DNA of 64,000 nucleotides from Candidatus Nomurabacteria bacterium GW2011_GWA1_36_15 (GTDB taxonomy: Bacteria; Patescibacteriota; Minisyncoccia; Phycocordibacterales; UBA9973): positions 1,398 through 65,397 of the forward strand of contig LBRM01000004.1 of NCBI GenBank assembly GCA_000991415.1, read 5' to 3'. This document shows, piece after piece, positions 5,929 to 11,671 of the stretch. Position numbers and translations under genes: made by a program. The notes under the pieces were generated by a model that saw only the letters and a list, made by a program, of their open reading frames with translations, made no database searches and was not told where the DNA came from. The stretch's first letter is position 1; the number at the start of each line of letters is the position of its first letter.

Positions 5929-7682
5929 CTACTTTTCTCTTCTATTTCTTTTTTTAGCTTTGTGAGAAATTCTTCAGTGGAAATGTTTTCAAATTTTTTA
6001 TCGTTTCTGCCTTCCACGGTAAGCTTTTTTGATCCTTTTTCCCTGTCACCGATAATTATTAGATATGGAATTTTTTGTACCTTTGCGTTGCGAATTTTTT
6101 TACTCAAAGATTCATTAGATTCATCAAGCTCCACACGCACGTCATTTTCTTTTAGAGTTTTAAAAATTTCAGTGGCATAGTCCAGATGTTTGTCTCCCGA
6201 AATTGGAATAATTTTTATTTGCACTGGAGAGAGCCAAAGAGGGAATGCGCCAGCATAATGTTCAATTAAAATTCCCATAAATCTTTCAAAAGAACCCAAT
6301 ATAGCCACATGTAGAACTACTACTCGATGTTTTTTGCCGTCTTCTCCCACATAATCCATCTCGAAATTATTTGGTTGATTAAAATCAAGTTGTATTGTTG
6401 CTAGTTGCCATTCTCTTCCGATCGAATCTTTTATTTTTATGTCAATTTTAGGTCCATAAAATGCAGCTTCGCCTTCCTCAACGTTGTATTTTAGACCCAT
6501 TTTTTTTGCAGAATTAATTAATATTTTTTCTGCATTCTCCCATATTTCATCATTTCCGAAATATTTTTCTTTATTTTTAGTGTTTCGTGTAGAAACTTCG
6601 ACTTTGTAATTATCAAAACCAAATAATTTGTAAACTTTTCGCATCAAACTAAAAATCATTTCAATTTCTGATTCAATTTGATCAGTTCTTATGAAATGAT
6701 GAGTGTCGTCTTGGGTTAGATTTTTAACGCGCAGAAGTCCGGATAATTCACCGCTTTTTTCATTGCGATAGACGGTTGTATTTTCTGCTATACGTAAAGG
6801 TAAATCACGATAGCTATGTAGTTCTGCATTATATATTTCAAAATGATGAGGGCAATTCATCGCTTTCATGACAAATTCTTCACCATCTTCATCCGTCATA
6901 ATTGGCATCATTGCGTTATATTTACCTATGTGTCCGCTACGAATGTAGAGTTCTTTTCTGGCTATGTGTGGAATGGTTACAAAAAAATAACCCAATTTTT
7001 CTTTTTCTTTTCTTATGAAATTTTCTAATTCAGTTTTAATGATATTGCCTTTTGGTAAATACATTGGTAGCCCTTTGCCAACTAAATCTGAGATAGTAAA
7101 CAAACTAAGTTCTTTTCCTAATTTCTTGTGGTCCCTCTTTTCGGCTTCTTTACGCATTTTGATGTATTCATCAAGTTTTTCTTTTGTCTCAAAAGCCAAT
7201 CCGTAAATACGAGTAAGCATTTTGTTTTTTTCATTTCCACGCCAATATGCTCCAGCCACACGGTCTAACTTAAATGAATCAAATTTAATTTCTTTACTTG
7301 GATTTTTCAAATGTCCTCCTCGGCAAAGATCTGTAAAATCTCCACATTTATAAAAAGTTATTTTTTCACCTTTTCCAATGATTTCTTCTATCAGTTCTAT
7401 TTTGTATTCATTCTTTTTAAAATATTCTTTTGCCTCTTTTTCACTTTTTTCTTTACTCTCAAACTCTTTCCAAGATTTTAAAATCTCTTTCATTTTCTTC
7501 TCTATTTTAGGCAAATCTTTATCAGAAATAGGTGAACTAAACTCAAAATCATAATAAAAACCGTCTTCTATTGATGGGCCGATAGTATTTTTTGTATCTG
7601 GATATATCTTTAAAACAGCTGCAGCTAAAAGGTGAGCTAAAGAATGTCTTAAATTATGCAGTTTTTCATTCTTATTTTCCAT
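5925..7682 (-). CDS. thrS: threonine--tRNA ligase
   Basis: 585 aa; HSLAHLLAAA (HxxxH second-additional domain), class II core FYGPKIDIKIKDSIGREWQLATIQLDFNQP, anticodon-binding C-terminus. Confidence 0.9.
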   Translation of the reverse strand: MENKNEKLHNLRHSLAHLLAAAVLKIYPDTKNTIGPSIEDGFYYDFEFSSPISDKDLPKIEKKMKEILKSWKEFESKEKSEKEAKEYFKKNEYKIELIEEIIGKGEKITFYKCGDFTDLCRGGHLKNPSKEIKFDSFKLDRVAGAYWRGNEKNKMLTRIYGLAFETKEKLDEYIKMRKEAEKRDHKKLGKELSLFTISDLVGKGLPMYLPKGNIIKTELENFIRKEKEKLGYFFVTIPHIARKELYIRSGHIGKYNAMMPIMTDEDGEEFVMKAMNCPHHFEIYNAELHSYRDLPLRIAENTTVYRNEKSGELSGLLRVKNLTQDDTHHFIRTDQIESEIEMIFSLMRKVYKLFGFDNYKVEVSTRNTKNKEKYFGNDEIWENAEKILINSAKKMGLKYNVEEGEAAFYGPKIDIKIKDSIGREWQLATIQLDFNQPNNFEMDYVGEDGKKHRVVVLHVAILGSFERFMGILIEHYAGAFPLWLSPVQIKIIPISGDKHLDYATEIFKTLKENDVRVELDESNESLSKKIRNAKVQKIPYLIIIGDREKGSKKLTVEGRNDKKFENISTEEFLTKLKKEIEEKSS

Positions 7683-7837
7683 AAAAAGTCCTTTAATTAT
7701 AGCATTTTTATGATTAACAAAAGACTTGCTTTTTACATAGTATATGATATAATATATGAGACAAAATAATTGTTCTTTGTCACCTTTAAAACCGTGCCTG
7801 ACGGGTTTCAGGTAATAAATAAAAGGAGAAATAAATT

Positions 7838-8572
7838 ATGAACGACATGTTAGCACGCCAAAAAGCACGCGCTGTCGGTAAAATTACCACTGCTCTGCTT
7901 CTAAATGATCCTTCCGAAGAAGATCTACGAGTTATAAACTCGCTTCCTGACGCAACCATAAAAAGACGCGTCAAGACAATCTACTTTCCTGGTGTAAAGG
8001 GTCTTGTAAAAAAAGTTGAAGGGGTGTATCCGGAATCTCTACTTGAGTTTCACGATGGTTGGGTAGAATTCTATAAAAACTTTGGTATTACAATTGACTT
8101 AAATGATTTTCCACTTCCCAAAAATATAATTTTGGAACCGGAACAAAATTATTGGTCTATTGTTGTTCCAGATATGAATCCTCAAAAAGCATTCGAATTA
8201 CGCAAACAAATTACTTCTGTTTATGAATACACAAGTGTTTCAAAAATAATTGATGTGTATCCAAGAATAAAAGTGTCTGTAATTAAAGCTAATTTGGATA
8301 CCAAAGTTGAGTATCCTAATGTTTCGCTCAACAAAAGCATGGAACTTGGTCTATTTGGCACTACATTCACCGAAGGCTGTCTAATTGATGGTCGAGTGTT
8401 CAAAGATAGTGGTGTTCATCTTGATGTTAGTAGTTGGACACTTCACACCGGTTCTCGTGGCTCGGATGGCAGGGTTCCGCGCTCGCGCTGGCTCGACGTC
8501 GAGTTCAATGTGCGTTCCTATAATCCGGACTATGCGAGTCCTTACTTGTCTCTCCGCCAAAAGCAGTTTTAA
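7838..8572 (+). CDS. DGR target protein with C-terminal variable region (VR)
   Basis: 244 aa; AAAGGAG RBS; last ~40 codons (8449-8559) are near-identical to a downstream template repeat except at TR adenines; VR codons R/G/L/D/Y/S correspond to AAY (Asn) codons in TR. Confidence 0.8.
   Translation: MNDMLARQKARAVGKITTALLLNDPSEEDLRVINSLPDATIKRRVKTIYFPGVKGLVKKVEGVYPESLLEFHDGWVEFYKNFGITIDLNDFPLPKNIILEPEQNYWSIVVPDMNPQKAFELRKQITSVYEYTSVSKIIDVYPRIKVSVIKANLDTKVEYPNVSLNKSMELGLFGTTFTEGCLIDGRVFKDSGVHLDVSSWTLHTGSRGSDGRVPRSRWLDVEFNVRSYNPDYASPYLSLRQKQF
8449..8559 (+). repeat. DGR variable region (VR) at 3' end of target gene
   Basis: 111-nt block aligning to 8832-8942; by manual alignment ~22 mismatches, ~20 at positions where TR has A. 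Confidence 0.8.
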
Positions 8573-8601
8573 ACTTTTTGCTTTTGACTTTTAATCTTTT
8601 T

Positions 8602-8634
8602 CGCGTTAGTTTTTAGCTAACGCGATTTTTTTAT
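8602..8634 (+). terminator. rho-independent terminator / GC hairpin downstream of VR
   Basis: cgcgttag-tttttag-ctaacgcg perfect 8-bp stem followed by ATTTTTTT. Confidence 0.7.
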
Positions 8635-8831
8635 GTTAAAATATACTTGGCTAATAAACTGATCTTATAAAATTAAGATAACAGTTTGCCATGTTAAGAA
8701 ACTGCTTACAAAAAATTGAGCATAGATAATACAGTTTAGTAATGATGCTACATATTGCTCACAACCGTGAGAAAACACAGAGAATTAGGCAACTGATTTG
8801 TCGGTGGAATAGATGATTTTTTGTAATAGGA

Positions 8832-8942
8832 CGGTTCTCGTAATTCGGATGGCAATGTTCCGAACTCGAACTGGAACAACGACAAGTTCAATGTGAATTC
8901 AAATAATCCGGACAATGCGAATCCAAACTTGTCTCTCCGCCA
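8832..8942 (+). repeat. DGR template repeat (TR)
   Basis: Non-coding copy of VR; in VR frame encodes GSRNSDGNVPNSNWNNDKFNVNSNNPDNANPNLSLRQ, i.e. 12+ AAY codons, hallmark of adenine-directed mutagenesis templates; 3' end diverges from VR (IMH-like). Confidence 0.8.
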
Positions 8943-8956
8943 GAAGTTTCTCACTT

Positions 8957-8988
8957 AAATCCGCTTTCAATTTTGATTGAGCGGATTT
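8957..8988 (+). promoter_or_regulatory. stable hairpin immediately 3' of TR (possible DGR RNA structural element / terminator)
   Basis: aaatccgct-(14 nt loop)-agcggattt, 9-bp stem, followed by TTTTGTGTTT. Confidence 0.5.
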
Positions 8989-9302
8989 TGTGTTTGCAGA
9001 TATTTTAACCAACCATTTGTCATTTTAGAAATTTCTTGCAATTTTAGTTCTATGTTTAGATATGCTTTTTCTGTTATGACTTTTATTTCATATTCTGTTC
9101 TGAATAATTGTTTTAATGTTTCTATTTGGAGTCTTGCTTTCTTGACCGAAGTTACCTTTTCAGATTTTGGTTCAAGTGAAGCGTTTATTAAAAAAGAAAA
9201 AGCTTGTAAAAATTCTTTTTCAATATAATTATGAATTCCCAATTTGTCTCGTTTCGGCAACTTGTTGCCAATCGTATACACATAGATATATAATTTTCTC
9301 AT
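8967..9302 (-). CDS. avd: Avd-like accessory variability determinant (four-helix-bundle, TIGR02436-like)
   Basis: 111 aa; IYVYTIGNKLPKRDKLGIHNYIEKEF... matches FPKxEKyGLxsQirRAA pattern and C-terminal EIsKMtngWL of bAvd-type proteins; sits between TR and RT but on the opposite strand. Confidence 0.6.
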   Translation of the reverse strand: MRKLYIYVYTIGNKLPKRDKLGIHNYIEKEFLQAFSFLINASLEPKSEKVTSVKKARLQIETLKQLFRTEYEIKVITEKAYLNIELKLQEISKMTNGWLKYLQTQNPLNQN

Positions 9303-9328
9303 TTTGTGAACAACAGGGATGTTAAAAA

Positions 9329-10369
9329 TTGCGTCGGGGGGGGGCTGTTAAAAGTCTTTTCCATAATGTAATAAGTTTATCAAATTTACTTCAAGCTTGG
9401 AAGGAATTTAAAAGGTGTAAAACTAAAAAGACAGATGTTGCTGAATTCGAATTTGATTTAGAAAATAATCTATTTTCTCTACATCAAGAATTGATAAATA
9501 AAACTTACAAACCTACAAAATATCAAGCATTTTTTGTACATGATCCAAAACGCAGACATATACATAAGGCAATAGTCCTAGATAGAGTTTTAAATCAAGC
9601 TATTTTTAGAATTCTTTATCCTATTTTTGATAAACATTTTATTTCTGATTCATATTCTTCACGGGTTAAAAAGGGAACACACGAAGCATCAAGAAGACTT
9701 TTTATAGCTTTACGTAAAAAGAGCGAGAATTGGAAACGACCAGTTTTTGTTCTTAAGTGTGATATTAGAAAATTTTTTGATTCAATAGATCATATTATAT
9801 TATTTGAGTTAATTAAGAAAAAAATTTTAGATATAGATACTTTATGGCTAATCAGCATAATATTACAAAGTTTTGAGAAGTCTTCAAATACTGGGCTTCC
9901 TCTTGGCAATGCGACTAGTCAACTTTTTGCTAATATCTATTTAAATGAATTAGACCAGTTTATAAAACATAAACTCGAAGTTAAGCATTATTTTAGATAT
10001 GCTGATGATTTTGTCATTTTGCAAAATAACAAAATATATCTTGAAAACCTTTTAGAACAGACAGAAGATTTTTTAAAGAATAATTTAAAATTGAATTTGC
10101 ATCCAGATAAAGTTTTTATAAGGAAATTAAAACAAGGAATAGATTTTGTTGGTTATGTTATTTTACCTGATGTGACTGTATTGCGGACAAAAACAAAGAA
10201 AAGAATCTTAAAAAAACTAAAAAAAGCACAAAAAGAATTTCTAGCTGGAAAGATAAGCAAAAACGAGTTTCAACAAATTCAGGCTTCTTATATAGGCGTG
10301 TTGAAACATTGTAGAAGTAATAAAATTAAAAGAGAAATTAAAAAAAGAATGGTTGCTTTTAAAATATAA
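9329..10369 (+). CDS. DGR-type reverse transcriptase
   Basis: 346 aa; RT motifs: N-terminal LFHNVISLSNLLQAWKEFKRCK, KCDIRKFFDSIDH, GLPLGNATSQLFANIYL (DGR-specific (I/L)GxxxSQ), FRYADDFVIL (YxDD). Track start is TTG 9329; ATG 9319 is out of frame by 1 across a G9 homopolymer. Confidence 0.88.
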   Translation: MRRGGAVKSLFHNVISLSNLLQAWKEFKRCKTKKTDVAEFEFDLENNLFSLHQELINKTYKPTKYQAFFVHDPKRRHIHKAIVLDRVLNQAIFRILYPIFDKHFISDSYSSRVKKGTHEASRRLFIALRKKSENWKRPVFVLKCDIRKFFDSIDHIILFELIKKKILDIDTLWLISIILQSFEKSSNTGLPLGNATSQLFANIYLNELDQFIKHKLEVKHYFRYADDFVILQNNKIYLENLLEQTEDFLKNNLKLNLHPDKVFIRKLKQGIDFVGYVILPDVTVLRTKTKKRILKKLKKAQKEFLAGKISKNEFQQIQASYIGVLKHCRSNKIKREIKKRMVAFKI

Positions 10370-10389
10370 AATGCTAATATGTCTATATT

Positions 10390-10608
10390 ATGGTAGTACG
10401 AATGAGACATACAAAGTCGCATACAAAGAACAGGCGTTCTCATCATGCGTTAGTGAGCACAGGTCTTTCTAAGTGCGAAAATTGTAAGAATTTTAAGAAA
10501 CGCCACACAGTTTGCTTGTCCTGTGGATTTTATCGCGGAACGAAAGTATTAGATTTGATTAAAAAAATGGAAAAGAAGCAAAAGAGAGAAAAAGCAAAAA
10601 AGGCATAG
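10390..10608 (+). CDS. rpmF: 50S ribosomal protein L32
   Basis: MVVRMRHTKSHTKNRRSHHAL...CxxC...CxxCG zinc-ribbon typical of L32. Confidence 0.85.
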   Translation: MVVRMRHTKSHTKNRRSHHALVSTGLSKCENCKNFKKRHTVCLSCGFYRGTKVLDLIKKMEKKQKREKAKKA

Positions 10609-10614
10609 AATTAG

Positions 10615-10744
10615 TTAGAAAATTAATGAACGCAGTGAATATAATTTTCTAACCCTGTTAAATCCTATCATAGGCAGGCCTCGCAGAGCGAGGATTTAAC
10701 AGGGTGATGATTTTCATACTCACTTCATTCATTGAAAATCAATT
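10615..10744 (+). promoter_or_regulatory. repeated promoter + 5' hairpin + leader module, copy A (upstream of nusB)
   Basis: TTAGAAAA-19nt-TATAAT, then hairpin ccctgttaaatcct...aggatttaacaggg (14-bp stem), then conserved tail gattttcatactcacttcattcattgaaaatcaattATG; homologous to copies at 20275 and 57142. Confidence 0.6.
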
Positions 10745-11671
10745 ATGGCTAACCGGCACCTTTCAAGATCAATAGTACTCCAAACGCTTTTTGAGTGGGA
10801 TTTTATCTCTACCTCGGGGCAAAATAAAACTTGGACTGATAAAAAAATAAAAGAAGTTCTAAATAAAAATCTTAAAGAATTTGCTCCCGGATTGGAGGAT
10901 AATGTTTTTGTGTTTTCTTTAGTAGAGGAAGTATTGAAAAAATGTAAAGCAGTTGACGAGATAATAAAAAAAGCTGCACCAGACTGGCCGCTGGATAAAA
11001 TTTCCATTGTTGATAGAAATATTTTAAGAATTGGTTTGACAGAACTTCTTTTTGGTAATAGAAATCAAGTACCTCCCAAGGTGGCAATCAATGAAGCAAT
11101 AGAACTGGCTAAAACTTTTGGCGGGGAAAATTCCGGTAAATTTGTGAATGGCGTGCTGGGTGCAGTTTATAAAGAAATTGGCGAACCCGGCAAAGAACAA
11201 ATAAGCAAGAAGAAAAGAAAAGAAGAACCATTAGATATTACAAAGATGCCGGTTGAAAAATTAGGAGGGGCGTTGGTGTACGCAAAAAGAAATGGTAATA
11301 TTTTGTTCGCCTTGGTACATGATGTTTTTGGCTATTGGACTTTATCAAAAGGTAAAGTTGAAGAAAGTGAAGATGTAAAAAATGGCACAATAAGAGAAAT
11401 AAGAGAAGAGATTGGTTTAGATATTATAATTAAAGAAAAGTTGGGAGAAAATGAATATGTAGCTTCTCATCCAGAAAAAGGAAAAATTCTGAAAAAAGTG
11501 GTTTATTTTTTAGCAGAAAGTAAATACCAAAAACTCCAGCTTGAAAATTCCGGCGGGCTAGATGGAGCCAAATGGTTTCAGCTTTCAGAAATTCCGGAAC
11601 TTCGCATTTATAATGATATTATTCCACTTATCACCAAGGCGATTGAAATACTGAATAGTGGAAAGTTATAA
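10745..11671 (+). CDS. nusB: transcription antitermination factor NusB fused to C-terminal Nudix hydrolase domain
   Basis: N-terminal NusB (LFEWDF...DRNILRIGLTEL...ELAKTFGGENSGKFVNGVLG); C-terminal Nudix box GKVEESEDVKNGTIREIREEIGL (Gx5Ex7REUxEExGU). Confidence 0.8.
   Translation: MANRHLSRSIVLQTLFEWDFISTSGQNKTWTDKKIKEVLNKNLKEFAPGLEDNVFVFSLVEEVLKKCKAVDEIIKKAAPDWPLDKISIVDRNILRIGLTELLFGNRNQVPPKVAINEAIELAKTFGGENSGKFVNGVLGAVYKEIGEPGKEQISKKKRKEEPLDITKMPVEKLGGALVYAKRNGNILFALVHDVFGYWTLSKGKVEESEDVKNGTIREIREEIGLDIIIKEKLGENEYVASHPEKGKILKKVVYFLAESKYQKLQLENSGGLDGAKWFQLSEIPELRIYNDIIPLITKAIEILNSGKL

Follow-up and report, generated by a model that had tools for sequence, protein, structure and literature searches.

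The locus at positions 7838–10369 of the window (the whole stretch of DNA analysed here, 64,000 nucleotides from Candidatus Nomurabacteria) is, with high probability, a complete chromosomal diversity-generating retroelement (DGR) of CPR type, with architecture B3 and comprising a single target gene with one variable repeat (VR), a template repeat (TR), a reverse-strand avd gene and a reverse transcriptase (RT) gene (Table 1). The element lies between thrS and rpmF, and its parts are all intact ORFs. Several public assemblies carry exactly the same sequence, and GenBank LBQG01000001.1, from a Ca. Nomurabacteria MAG, matches the locus without a difference. Although public since 2015, the sequence has carried a mislabelled RT (“Retron-type reverse transcriptase”) among neighbours named hypothetical. 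Each of the elements that the initial annotation had recognised (a C-terminal VR, an AAY-rich TR, an opposite-strand Avd and an RT of DGR type) holds on computational analysis.

Table 1. Features of the element, in window coordinates. Related loci are denoted by L-numbers in the text.
Feature	Position	Strand	Description
Target (variable protein) gene	7838..8572	+	244 aa
VR (variable repeat)	8449-8559	+	final ~40 codons of target ORF 7838-8572, in frame
IMH-like invariant GC-rich 3' block of VR, CTTGTCTCTCCGCCAAAAG	8544..8563	+	encodes family-invariant LSLRQK
Hairpin and T run	8601..8632	+	11-bp stem 8601-8625, then T7; terminator-like
Extended -10-like box TGTTAAAAT, putative TR RNA promoter	8634..8642	+	proposed from conservation
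Structured RNA leader 5' of TR	8648..8824	+	about 180-190 nt; five helices, covariation
Leader helix P1	8648-8651/8688-8691 and 8656-8664/8677-8687	+	
Leader helix P2	8708-8714/8817-8824	+	
Leader helix P3	8719-8723/8745-8749	+	
Leader helix P4	8759-8762/8767-8770	+	
Leader helix P5	8782-8788/8793-8799	+	
TR (template repeat)	8832-8942	+	non-coding; 13 AAY codons in VR frame
Conserved box GAAGTTTCTCAC	8943..8954	+	directly 3' of TR
Two-tier hairpin 3' of TR, then U-rich tail	8952..8998	+	fold z-score, covariation; terminator-like
avd (accessory variability determinant homologue)	8967..9302	-	111 aa, divergent from RT
Promoter-like site TTGCCA-18-TATAAT (11/12)	9265..9294	+	inside first avd codons, upstream of RT
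RT gene of DGR type	9329..10369	+	346 aa, TTG start; LGNATSQ (residues 192-198), YADD
G9 homopolymer	9336..9344	+	RT codons 3-6; 34 nt upstream of opposite-strand avd ATG

Repeat pair, avd and reverse transcriptase

The longest direct repeat of the region, as located by a repeat finder, pairs 8449–8563 with 8832–8946 (115 nt, 80% identity, offset 383), and this, together with an ungapped comparison, bears out the 111-nt VR/TR pair originally proposed. The 111-nt blocks differ at 22 positions, 20 of which are adenines in the TR (A>G 9, A>T 6, A>C 5), in agreement with the earlier manual count of about 20 of 22; in all, 20 of the 34 adenines of the 111-nt TR differ in VR. The two remaining mismatches both lie at TR thymines (8461 T>C and 8473 T>G), and one more is found just beyond the block (G>A at 8560). 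Across the full 115 nt, 20/36 A positions have changed vs 3/79 non-A positions (Fisher one-sided p=6.5e-10). Translated in the VR frame the TR reads GSRNSDGNVPNSNWNNDKFNVNSNNPDNANPNLSLRQK, its 13 Asn (AAY) codons reading as first annotated. The TR is placed inside the 394-nt gap that separates the target stop from the avd stop, and a search of the whole 64 kb, also with A positions ignored, returned no third copy of the repeat.

The minus-strand ORF between TR and RT, put forward as Avd-like from the outset, matches Pfam PF22296 (bAvd; E=5.6e-10, 40.1 bits, cut-off 40) and NCBIfam NF033474 (DivGenRetAVD; E=6e-14, 52 bits, below the cut-off of 80); among precomputed annotations, PF22296 is also recorded on the Avd homologues of L004, L005 and L010. 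Modelling Avd from its single sequence with AF2 gave a poor structure (pLDDT 70, with no clear four-helix bundle), which was left unused.

The RT gene starts 387 nt past the 111-nt TR block (about 390 bp had been given), with the anticipated (I/L)GxxxSQ and YADD motifs both in place. Its product matches Pfam RVT_1 (8.9e-23), and the best relative in the PDB is bRT (8ub7; 5e-38, 134 bits, residues 8–298), group II intron RTs reaching 8e-22; Arg76 aligns with Arg74 of bRT. The LGNATSQ motif, invariant in five relatives, is of the form [I/V/L]GxxxSQ typical of DGR RTs, whereas RTs of group II introns and retroviruses have QGxxxSP (PMC7826257). On sequence grounds we assign the RT to the DGR class. 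The promoter-like site upstream of it may serve RT expression as a promoter; its TATAAT is kept in L001, L002, L005 and L010, a conservation that could reflect avd coding.

Variable protein and the 3' end of VR

Structure prediction indicates that residues ~61–244 of the target adopt a C-type-lectin/FGE-like fold, the model matching TvpA, Mtd, TaqVP, FGE-like and CTLD folds, while the N-terminal ~50–60 residues are modelled at low confidence as a helical module, which exists in two unrelated versions within the family alignment. This agrees with the C-type lectin/FGE fold expected for the target C-terminus by the initial annotation; the accompanying suggestion of a novel binding scaffold is not sustained, the fold being of a kind already represented by Mtd and TvpA. 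In the predicted fold the recoded residues fall within the last 40 residues of the domain, such that the variable residues are displayed on a C-type-lectin scaffold. The family alignment is consistent with this arrangement, containing a fixed scaffold (GSR..G.VP.S.W...F.V....P..A.P.LSLRQKQF) in which the hypervariable columns coincide with the TR AAY codons. Sequence-family searches with the target (Pfam, NCBIfam, PDB sequences) returned nothing above noise, and Pfam FGE-sulfatase and DUF1566 matched none of 28 family members; PABC-like matches at residues 13–46 were weak and below threshold and were disregarded. Neither a signal peptide nor a membrane segment can be recognised in the target, as is typical of CPR DGR targets.

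The conserved LSLRQKQF at the end of this alignment is encoded in part by the invariant 3' block of VR, which equals TR 8927–8946 except at 8560. In relatives there are zero VR/TR mismatches inside this block, against the single base here. The initial annotation had read divergence of the 3' ends as the sign of an IMH, which is only loosely right: the last ~16 nt of the 111-nt blocks are identical between VR and TR, complete divergence begins after them, and relatives are mismatch-free in the invariant block. We infer that the block may function as the IMH.

The GC hairpin noted downstream of VR at 8602–8634 is real, its extent being corrected here to a stem at 8601–8625 followed by T7. It sits 38 nt downstream of the invariant block, and its stem is kept with differing sequences in L001, L005, L010 and L016. 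In appearance this hairpin is an ordinary terminator, apparently the intrinsic one of the target gene; its position corresponds to that of the hairpin which follows the IMH in the Bordetella phage DGR.

RNA elements around TR and a poly-G tract in the RT gene

The TR is flanked by conserved elements on both sides. Upstream, the extended -10-like box has counterparts in L001 (TGTTATAAT) and L010 (TGTATAAT) and was not picked up by a two-hexamer promoter scan. The leader that follows has a consensus fold (RNAalifold) of 37 pairs, with compensatory changes in 28; 93.6% of alignment cells are paired, vs 35–47% in slid controls. A covariance model of the leader (R1) matches 13 loci outside its building set at 75–145 bits, with an additional 5'-truncated match in L032, and an Rfam search of 8400–9500 at E<=1 gave no match, leader included. 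In the DGR literature searched, the main texts make no mention of such a 5' leader RNA.

Downstream of the TR, the conserved box is invariant in GAAGTTT and nearly so in its remainder in 15 loci, including those with a different TR sequence. The hairpin beyond it consists of an outer CAC/GUG tier (8952–8954 with 8990–8992) and an inner stem (8957–8988), the latter with fold z-scores of -3.3 on the + strand and -3.6 on the - strand. Five of its 12 pairs show compensatory changes (10 loci), and the same fold is found in 15/15 loci. As had been noted for the strong hairpin at 8957–8988, the avd stop region overlaps this structure, the last avd codons falling on its 3' arm. An Avd-binding stem-loop just 3' of TR has been described in 207/278 DGRs (Handa et al.), and in the Bordetella DGR RNA it occupies the position matching this hairpin.

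These elements suggest a route by which VR could be rewritten, with putative promoters, RNA ends and priming site. A non-coding RNA would start at the extended -10 promoter just past the target terminator and would contain the five-helix leader, the 111-nt TR, the conserved GAAGUUUCUCAC box and the hairpin. By analogy with the Bordetella phage, an RT–Avd complex would bind the TR RNA and copy TR to cDNA with misincorporation opposite adenines, the hairpin 3' of TR being a probable positional equivalent of the Avd-binding stem-loop. The cDNA would then replace VR at the 3' end of the target gene, an outcome visible in the altered adenines and in the recoding of 13 Asn codons with no stops created; according to the fold prediction, the recoded residues would fall on the scaffold that DGRs use for variable ligand-binding sites.

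A further feature lies at the start of the RT gene, which opens with a G9 tract. No other run of at least 7 G or 7 C is present in the 64 kb, where runs of G9 or longer would be expected 0.03 times. A G8–G12 tract is found at the same place in 27 loci, and its presence at one site in 27 independent assemblies led us to reject a sequencing artefact. Tract length differs among related elements with no restriction to multiples of three: L027 has G10 and L028 has G9 between identical flanks. The RT TTG start of the window is in frame only with the tract at G9, and across the 27 loci a canonical start is in frame with the RT through the poly-G in 16 and not in the other 11. Within the lineage of the window itself, nine of ten assemblies have G9 and one has G12, all in frame. 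We rejected a role for the tract as a Shine-Dalgarno sequence because no start codon lies between it and the invariant FH(N/D) motif and because an ATG directly precedes that motif in L030, a locus from which the tract has been lost.

Homopolymeric contingency loci are known from the poly-G tracts of Campylobacter, Neisseria and Haemophilus. The tract described here is like them in being a G8–G12 run of variable length that an AT-rich genome carries within the opening codons of an ORF; unlike in those loci, switching is hypothetical here, and the lengths seen in the lineage of the window (G9 and G12) both keep the frame. For this Nomurabacteria/Paceibacterota DGR clade as a whole, we tentatively raise the possibility, which we consider more doubtful than probable, that hypermutation is gated by a slippery G8–G12 tract in the RT gene (through slipped-strand or transcriptional slippage), in combination with a five-helix, RT/Avd-recruiting domain 5' of TR and a short box and one hairpin 3' of it. 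If such gating were true, only a fraction of cells or transcripts would make RT; with the recruiting domain so placed, the DGR RNA would be organised differently from the Bordetella paradigm. In the literature searched we found no report of poly-G-type control of a DGR RT, and the main DGR texts searched do not mention the tract.

Alleles, activity and relation to known elements

Public assemblies allow activity of the DGR to be judged indirectly, by comparison of allele sequences. The VR allele of the window is identical in at least six assemblies from different samples, which fits low activity or strong selection; since assemblies report the majority allele only, minor variants would not be visible. 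A second VR allele (L004/L044 and L003) occurs on a background that is otherwise identical, all 29 nucleotide differences falling inside VR. The agreement of this allele with the TR of L049, a sister strain, is closer than with the TR of the window, and we therefore take the allele to reflect recombination or chimeric assembly, not homing from the window TR; an interpretation of L004/L003 as direct in-situ diversification was withdrawn on the same ground. Also withdrawn was the observation that seven ‘non-A’ variable sites all adjoin a TR adenine (p=0.001), because the L049 TR accounts for four of them (three as templated bases, one as an adenine position). The true non-A substitutions left are those at 8461, 8473 and 8485, each adjoining a changed A, which is not significant.

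A clean record of diversification comes from L027 and L028, whose contigs share the same TR and are elsewhere nearly identical along 3.8 kb. Their VRs differ from it at 15 (L027) and 16 (L028) positions, all adenines, and from each other at 12 positions, 12/12 of them TR adenines. A further cluster of differences between the two contigs (1490–1546), considered as a second VR, has no TR similarity and belongs to a gene resembling histidyl-tRNA synthetase. In other, independent VR/TR pairs there are 16–17 mismatches in L001 and 19 in L005, in both cases all at adenines, and in L010 14 at adenines with 1 elsewhere.

Two other explanations of the locus have to be weighed. The element might be intact but silent or nearly so, its VR/TR differences being the trace of past homing and the present VR allele being fixed. 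The persistence of one VR allele would be explained in this way, the assemblies that share it spanning different years as well as samples and including sub-strains that differ elsewhere in the protein. Signs of decay or loss exist among relatives: L008 retains the target and the 5' portion of the leader, joined to what is left of a truncated RT; the target homologue of L006 is not accompanied by a cassette within 4 kb; and the 11 loci without an in-frame canonical RT start point in the same direction. At the locus itself, however, ORFs, motifs and RNA elements are all intact and G9 keeps the TTG start in frame; L049, whose cassette diverges by ~2%, carries an allele that has diversified independently and agrees with the L049 TR; and L027/L028 record very recent diversification within the same clade. 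We regard a silent element as improbable.

Far less credible still, to the point of being nearly negligible, is that the locus is not a DGR at all, and that an RT of group II intron or retron type lies by chance near a diverged direct repeat. The GenBank name of the RT would favour this, as would its best NCBIfam model, group_II_RT_mat (TIGR04416; 159 bits, far below the cut-off of 300), with Drt3a and retron St85 ranking next. Membership of either class is contradicted in detail: the retron model NF038233 reaches 66.7 bits where its cut-off is 235, the motif is LGNATSQ and not the QGxxxSP of group II RTs, and no group II intron or retron RNA was matched at the locus in Rfam. Moreover, among relatives of solved structure bRT leads by 16 orders of magnitude, the RT has an Avd homologue as its neighbour, the VR/TR mismatches are specific to adenines, and relatives carry the same cassette, again with A-biased VR/TR pairs. 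A complete DGR is accordingly the reading that we retain.

The poly-G tract offers a concrete, easily mutated candidate for switching or throttling DGR activity, and the covarying 5' leader, GAAGUUUCUCAC box and 3' hairpin define a minimal RNA to reconstitute, which could make testable the question of how DGR RNAs that are without a Bordetella-like 3' spacer recruit RT–Avd and prime. The locus is also of value as a compact and clean CPR-type reference, with one target, VR and TR within 2.5 kb and ~30 relatives.

Compared with the BPP-1 element (mtd-avd-TR-brt), the locus has a homologous RT in which Arg74, the I/L-GxxxSQ motif and YxDD are kept, as well as an Avd, an AAY-rich TR, a VR at the C-terminus of a C-type-lectin fold, a post-VR hairpin and a stem-loop 3' of TR. 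It differs in that avd is on the opposite strand between TR and RT, that the element is cellular whereas that of BPP-1 is phage-borne, and that only here does the RT gene open with G9. The long structured RNA of BPP-1 is the 140-nt Sp, 3' of TR; here, the long structured region is 5' of TR and the 3' flank contains only the ~12-nt box and one hairpin with a U-rich tail. The nearest counterparts of the target are the DGR variable proteins of C-type-lectin fold, Mtd (1yu0), TvpA (2y3c) and TaqVP (5vf4), and the FGE-like or DUF1566/Lcl C-terminal domains, to which it has no detectable sequence similarity; at 244 aa it is very small.

The closest likeness is to the CPR-type DGRs, of which a study by Paul et al. 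from 2017 is reportedly another source. Those of architecture B3 have the same gene order and strands, the same groundwater CPR/Patescibacteria hosts, a chromosomal position among housekeeping genes, and a target likewise without recognisable domain and with VR at its C-terminus. [quoted passage not shown] Roux et al., 2021 (PMC8144416) define a ‘DGR clade 2’ that is grouped with the CPR-type DGRs. As a DGR the locus adds little, elements of precisely this gene order being known to abound in CPR genomes; we see no essential difference from them, and the element is an ordinary example of a DGR type already catalogued in CPR bacteria.

Adenine-specific repeat and the proteins beside it

The longest direct repeat of the region (115 nt, 80% identity, offset 383, by repeat finder) joins the variable repeat (VR) to the template repeat (TR) of a diversity-generating retroelement (DGR). 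The initial annotation had proposed a complete DGR, an interpretation that proves right in substance, and computational alignment bears out the adenine bias of the VR/TR mismatches essentially as it was written. Ungapped comparison of the 111-nt VR/TR block gives 22 mismatches, 20 of them at TR adenines (A>G 9, A>T 6, A>C 5) and two at TR thymines (8461 and 8473), with an additional G>A at 8560, outside the block; over the 115-nt repeat, 20/36 A positions are changed versus 3/79 non-A positions (Fisher p = 6.5e-10). The VR is the upstream copy and lies in frame, forming the last 40 codons of the target gene, and the TR translated in this frame reads GSRNSDGNVPNSNWNNDKFNVNSNNPDNANPNLSLRQK, with 13 AAY codons. 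Scanning both strands of the window with A positions ignored yielded no third copy. The two hairpins described at the outset are also real (see table).

Coordinates of the DGR and associated features (window positions unless a locus is named; L numbers are related loci or contigs)
Feature	Position	Remark
Target gene	7838-8572 (+)	244 aa
Direct repeat	8449-8563 vs 8832-8946
VR	8449-8559
TR	8832-8942
Hairpin	8601-8625	plus T run
Extended -10-like box TGTTAAAAT	8634-8642	ahead of helix P1
5′ leader	8648-8824	five helices
Leader covariance-model match	8631-8841	single window match, 219 bits
Putative separate TR RNA	~8648-8998	~350 nt
Hairpin	8957-8988
avd	8967-9302 (-)
Promoter-like site of RT	9265-9294	TTGCCA-18-TATAAT
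Reverse transcriptase (RT) ORF	9329-10369	TTG start
Poly-G tract (G9)	9336-9344	codons 3-6 of RT ORF
Poly-G tract in relatives	L001 7391-7400; L005 5512-5522; L010 1667-1677	also L011-L034 except L030
Apparent NusB-NUDIX fusion	10745-11671	308 aa, downstream of rpmF
Substitution cluster	L027 1490-1546	11 in 57 nt vs L028
Decayed DGR	L008 4753-5100	beside orphan target homologue P0021
Target homologue P0011	L006/L007 4001-4741	68% identical

The RT ORF encodes an RVT_1 reverse transcriptase, whose best match in the full set of solved structures is bRT, the Bordetella phage DGR enzyme (8ub7, E=5e-38, residues 8-298), the best group II intron RT match standing at 8e-22. Its LGNATSQ motif follows the DGR signature [I/V/L]GxxxSQ, where group II and retroviral RTs have QGxxxSP (PMC7826257), and it also carries YADD and an Arg aligned to bRT Arg74. 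The group II, Drt3a and retron models of NCBIfam were all sub-threshold on this protein, and an Rfam search found no intron or retron RNA at the locus. The avd ORF (accessory variability determinant) scores at the gathering threshold of Pfam bAvd and under the cut-off of NCBIfam DivGenRetAVD; a single-sequence structure model was uninformative.

Neighboring genes are of housekeeping type (gyrB, thrS, rpmF, a NusB-NUDIX gene, rnc, smc), and the element is therefore chromosomal, outside any recognizable prophage. The apparent NusB-NUDIX fusion is kept in the syntenic locus L005, where the homologous 312-aa gene provides the basis of the call (Pfam PF01029 and PF00293).

Alleles of the variable repeat

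The contigs L004/L044 and L003 come from other samples and match the window perfectly over 3.2 and 5.7 kb except for 29 differing positions, all within the VR, and one SNP (5704) in L003. This second allele (allele 2) has 19 mismatches to the window TR, 13 of them at adenines, versus 15 to the TR of the sister strain L049, again with 13 at adenines. L049 covers window 8436-9374; its TR differs from the window's at five positions (8841, 8853, 8904, 8911 and 8925), and outside the VR there are 13 other differing positions in ~800 nt. Because allele 2 fits the L049 TR better than the window TR, its presence in a window-type background points to interstrain VR recombination, or to a chimeric assembly, rather than homing from the window TR. 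The derivation of each allele from some TR of this element family by adenine-specific change is solid.

The window allele is unchanged in at least six assemblies. Elsewhere the VR carries deletions of 14 nt (L043, frameshifting) and 9 nt (L047, in-frame, between TGGC repeats), and in the public scaffold MFTL01000008 (L002) a run of Ns falls exactly at the VR (~6500-6570); these are likely the expected by-products of a population in which the VR is heterogeneous, or else genuine indel alleles. The cleanest case of diversification comes from a related element, in which loci L027 and L028 have a common TR from which their VRs depart by 15 and 16 mismatches, respectively, all at adenines, while the two VRs differ from each other at 12 positions, 12/12 at TR adenines. 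The pair is otherwise identical apart from the poly-G tract and a substitution cluster in a histidyl-tRNA synthetase-like gene, which has no relation to the TR and may be a short recombination tract. Taken together, the element looks like a functional DGR that has clearly been active in the past, and judged from sequence its present activity in the window strain is probable.

Genuine non-adenine substitutions number three: 8461 T>C, 8473 T>G and, in allele 2, 8485 G>T. All three directly adjoin a substituted adenine (AAT>GGC, AAT>AGG, GAA>TTA; n=3, not significant) and might derive from tandem misincorporation.

Relatives and cassette architecture

The target family is small (27 clusters, the source-named ones all Ca. 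Nomurabacteria or Paceibacterota), and its aligned members share an invariant scaffold, the hypervariable columns coinciding exactly with the TR AAY codons. Independent VR/TR pairs repeat the bias, with 16-17 mismatches (L001) and 19 (L005), all adenine, and 14 at adenines plus one elsewhere (L010). An RT-alignment scan of metagenome contigs gathered 29 loci, and in 24/24 of those with an Avd match avd is opposite in strand to the RT and 27-68 nt upstream of it. The order TR-(avd)-RT is architecture B3, found in 90% of the CPR set of Wu et al, 2018 (PMC5758913), and CPR targets typically have no recognizable domains or membrane segments (Roux et al, 2021; PMC8144416); the opposite-strand Avd and the target without a recognizable family, both initially flagged as unusual, are therefore the lineage norm. 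The locus is a standard CPR-type (B3) DGR with a lectin-fold target.

Within the target family, residues 1-50 of the alignment hold two unrelated N-terminal modules (MNDMLARQKARAVGKIT... versus ...NVRLWTSEQRDELISS...) that join the same lectin-fold body near an FFPG motif, which suggests modular exchange of a partner- or localization-determining segment. In L008, the target terminator, the promoter and the 5′ portion of the leader run straight into a mid-RT remnant (GLPLGNVTSQLFANIYLD*...) that contains stop codons; the RT N-terminus has been deleted together with the TR and avd. The homologue P0011 has a VR-like C-terminus and its gene is flanked by response-regulator and histidine-kinase genes, and none of TR, leader, avd or RT lies within 4 kb. 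Either P0011 serves a cassette located elsewhere as its remote target, or it is a locked fossil.

All three window proteins occur verbatim in GenBank MAGs of Candidatus Nomurabacteria (e.g. KKP63838.1, KKP76562.1, HCY18019.1), and window 7367-10902 is identical to LBQG01000001.1 (GCA_000990665.1) and DPQH01000015.1. The locus is already in public genomes, from the dataset of the first CPR DGR survey. Among the GenBank records covering RT/Avd (KKP63836.1, KKP63837.1 and others), the RT is labeled "Retron-type reverse transcriptase" and Avd "hypothetical", "S23 ribosomal protein" or "bAvd-like"; public records carry no DGR annotation of this locus.

Poly-G tract, 5′ leader and 3′ hairpin

Two parts of the locus are of possible specialist interest and open to concrete experiments, namely a poly-G tract and a conserved 5′ leader RNA. 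The expected number of G9 or longer runs in 64 kb is 0.03, and the tract is the sole G or C run of at least 7 in the window; it lies near the RT start (M R R G G A V ...), in the short interval between the divergent avd and RT genes and 34 nt upstream of the avd ATG. Poly-G occupies the same place in 27 loci with RTs at least 51% identical (G8 in 2, G9 in 9, G10 in 11, G11 in 4, G12 in 1) and is absent from four distant RTs. In the RT frame it is always read GG(G), and since only 16% of the Gly codons in seven window ORFs are GGG, selection acts on the nucleotide run and not on the glycines. No start codon separates the tract from an invariant FH(N/D) motif (aligned with bRT from residue 6 on), and in L030, where the tract has been lost, an ATG directly precedes this motif; the tract thus lies inside the RT ORF. 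A canonical in-frame RT start is present in 16/27 loci. L027 and L028 differ (G10 versus G9) between identical flanks; the window lineage has G9 in 9/10 assemblies and G12 in L049, all in frame, as is the G12 of the more distant L011. The pattern fits a candidate slippage-prone control point for RT expression, via DNA phase variation or transcriptional slippage, although homopolymer lengths in assemblies are error-prone and the pattern is no proof of a switch. No mention of the tract was found in the main texts of the DGR literature searched.

Conservation over the ~190 nt from the target terminator to the TR exceeds that of the target gene itself. RNAalifold predicts 37 pairs in this leader, 28 with compensatory changes; 93.6% of alignment cells are paired versus 35-47% with slid partners, double-change cells number 86 versus 13-22 in the slid controls, and 0/500 shuffles reached the observed values. 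A covariance model built from 14 loci matches 13 further loci outside that set (75-145 bits) and gives a 5′-truncated match in L032. Wherever a related locus extends far enough upstream, the leader is found; the model has no match in four distant RT loci, and the leader has none in Rfam. The TR would be carried on a separate RNA with predicted ends, and the RT may be transcribed from its own promoter-like site.

Directly 3′ of the TR stands a nearly invariant box, GAAGTTTCTC(A/G)C, followed by a two-tier hairpin with covarying stems and a U-rich tail. In Bordetella, an 11-bp stem-loop that closely follows the TR is the binding site of all five Avd protomers, and such stem-loops are predicted in 207/278 Avd-containing DGRs (Handa et al); the window hairpin beside the TR is the positional equivalent of this Avd-binding element. 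The two systems differ in that Bordetella has a 140-nt structured spacer 3′ of the TR, whereas here the long structured region lies 5′ of it.
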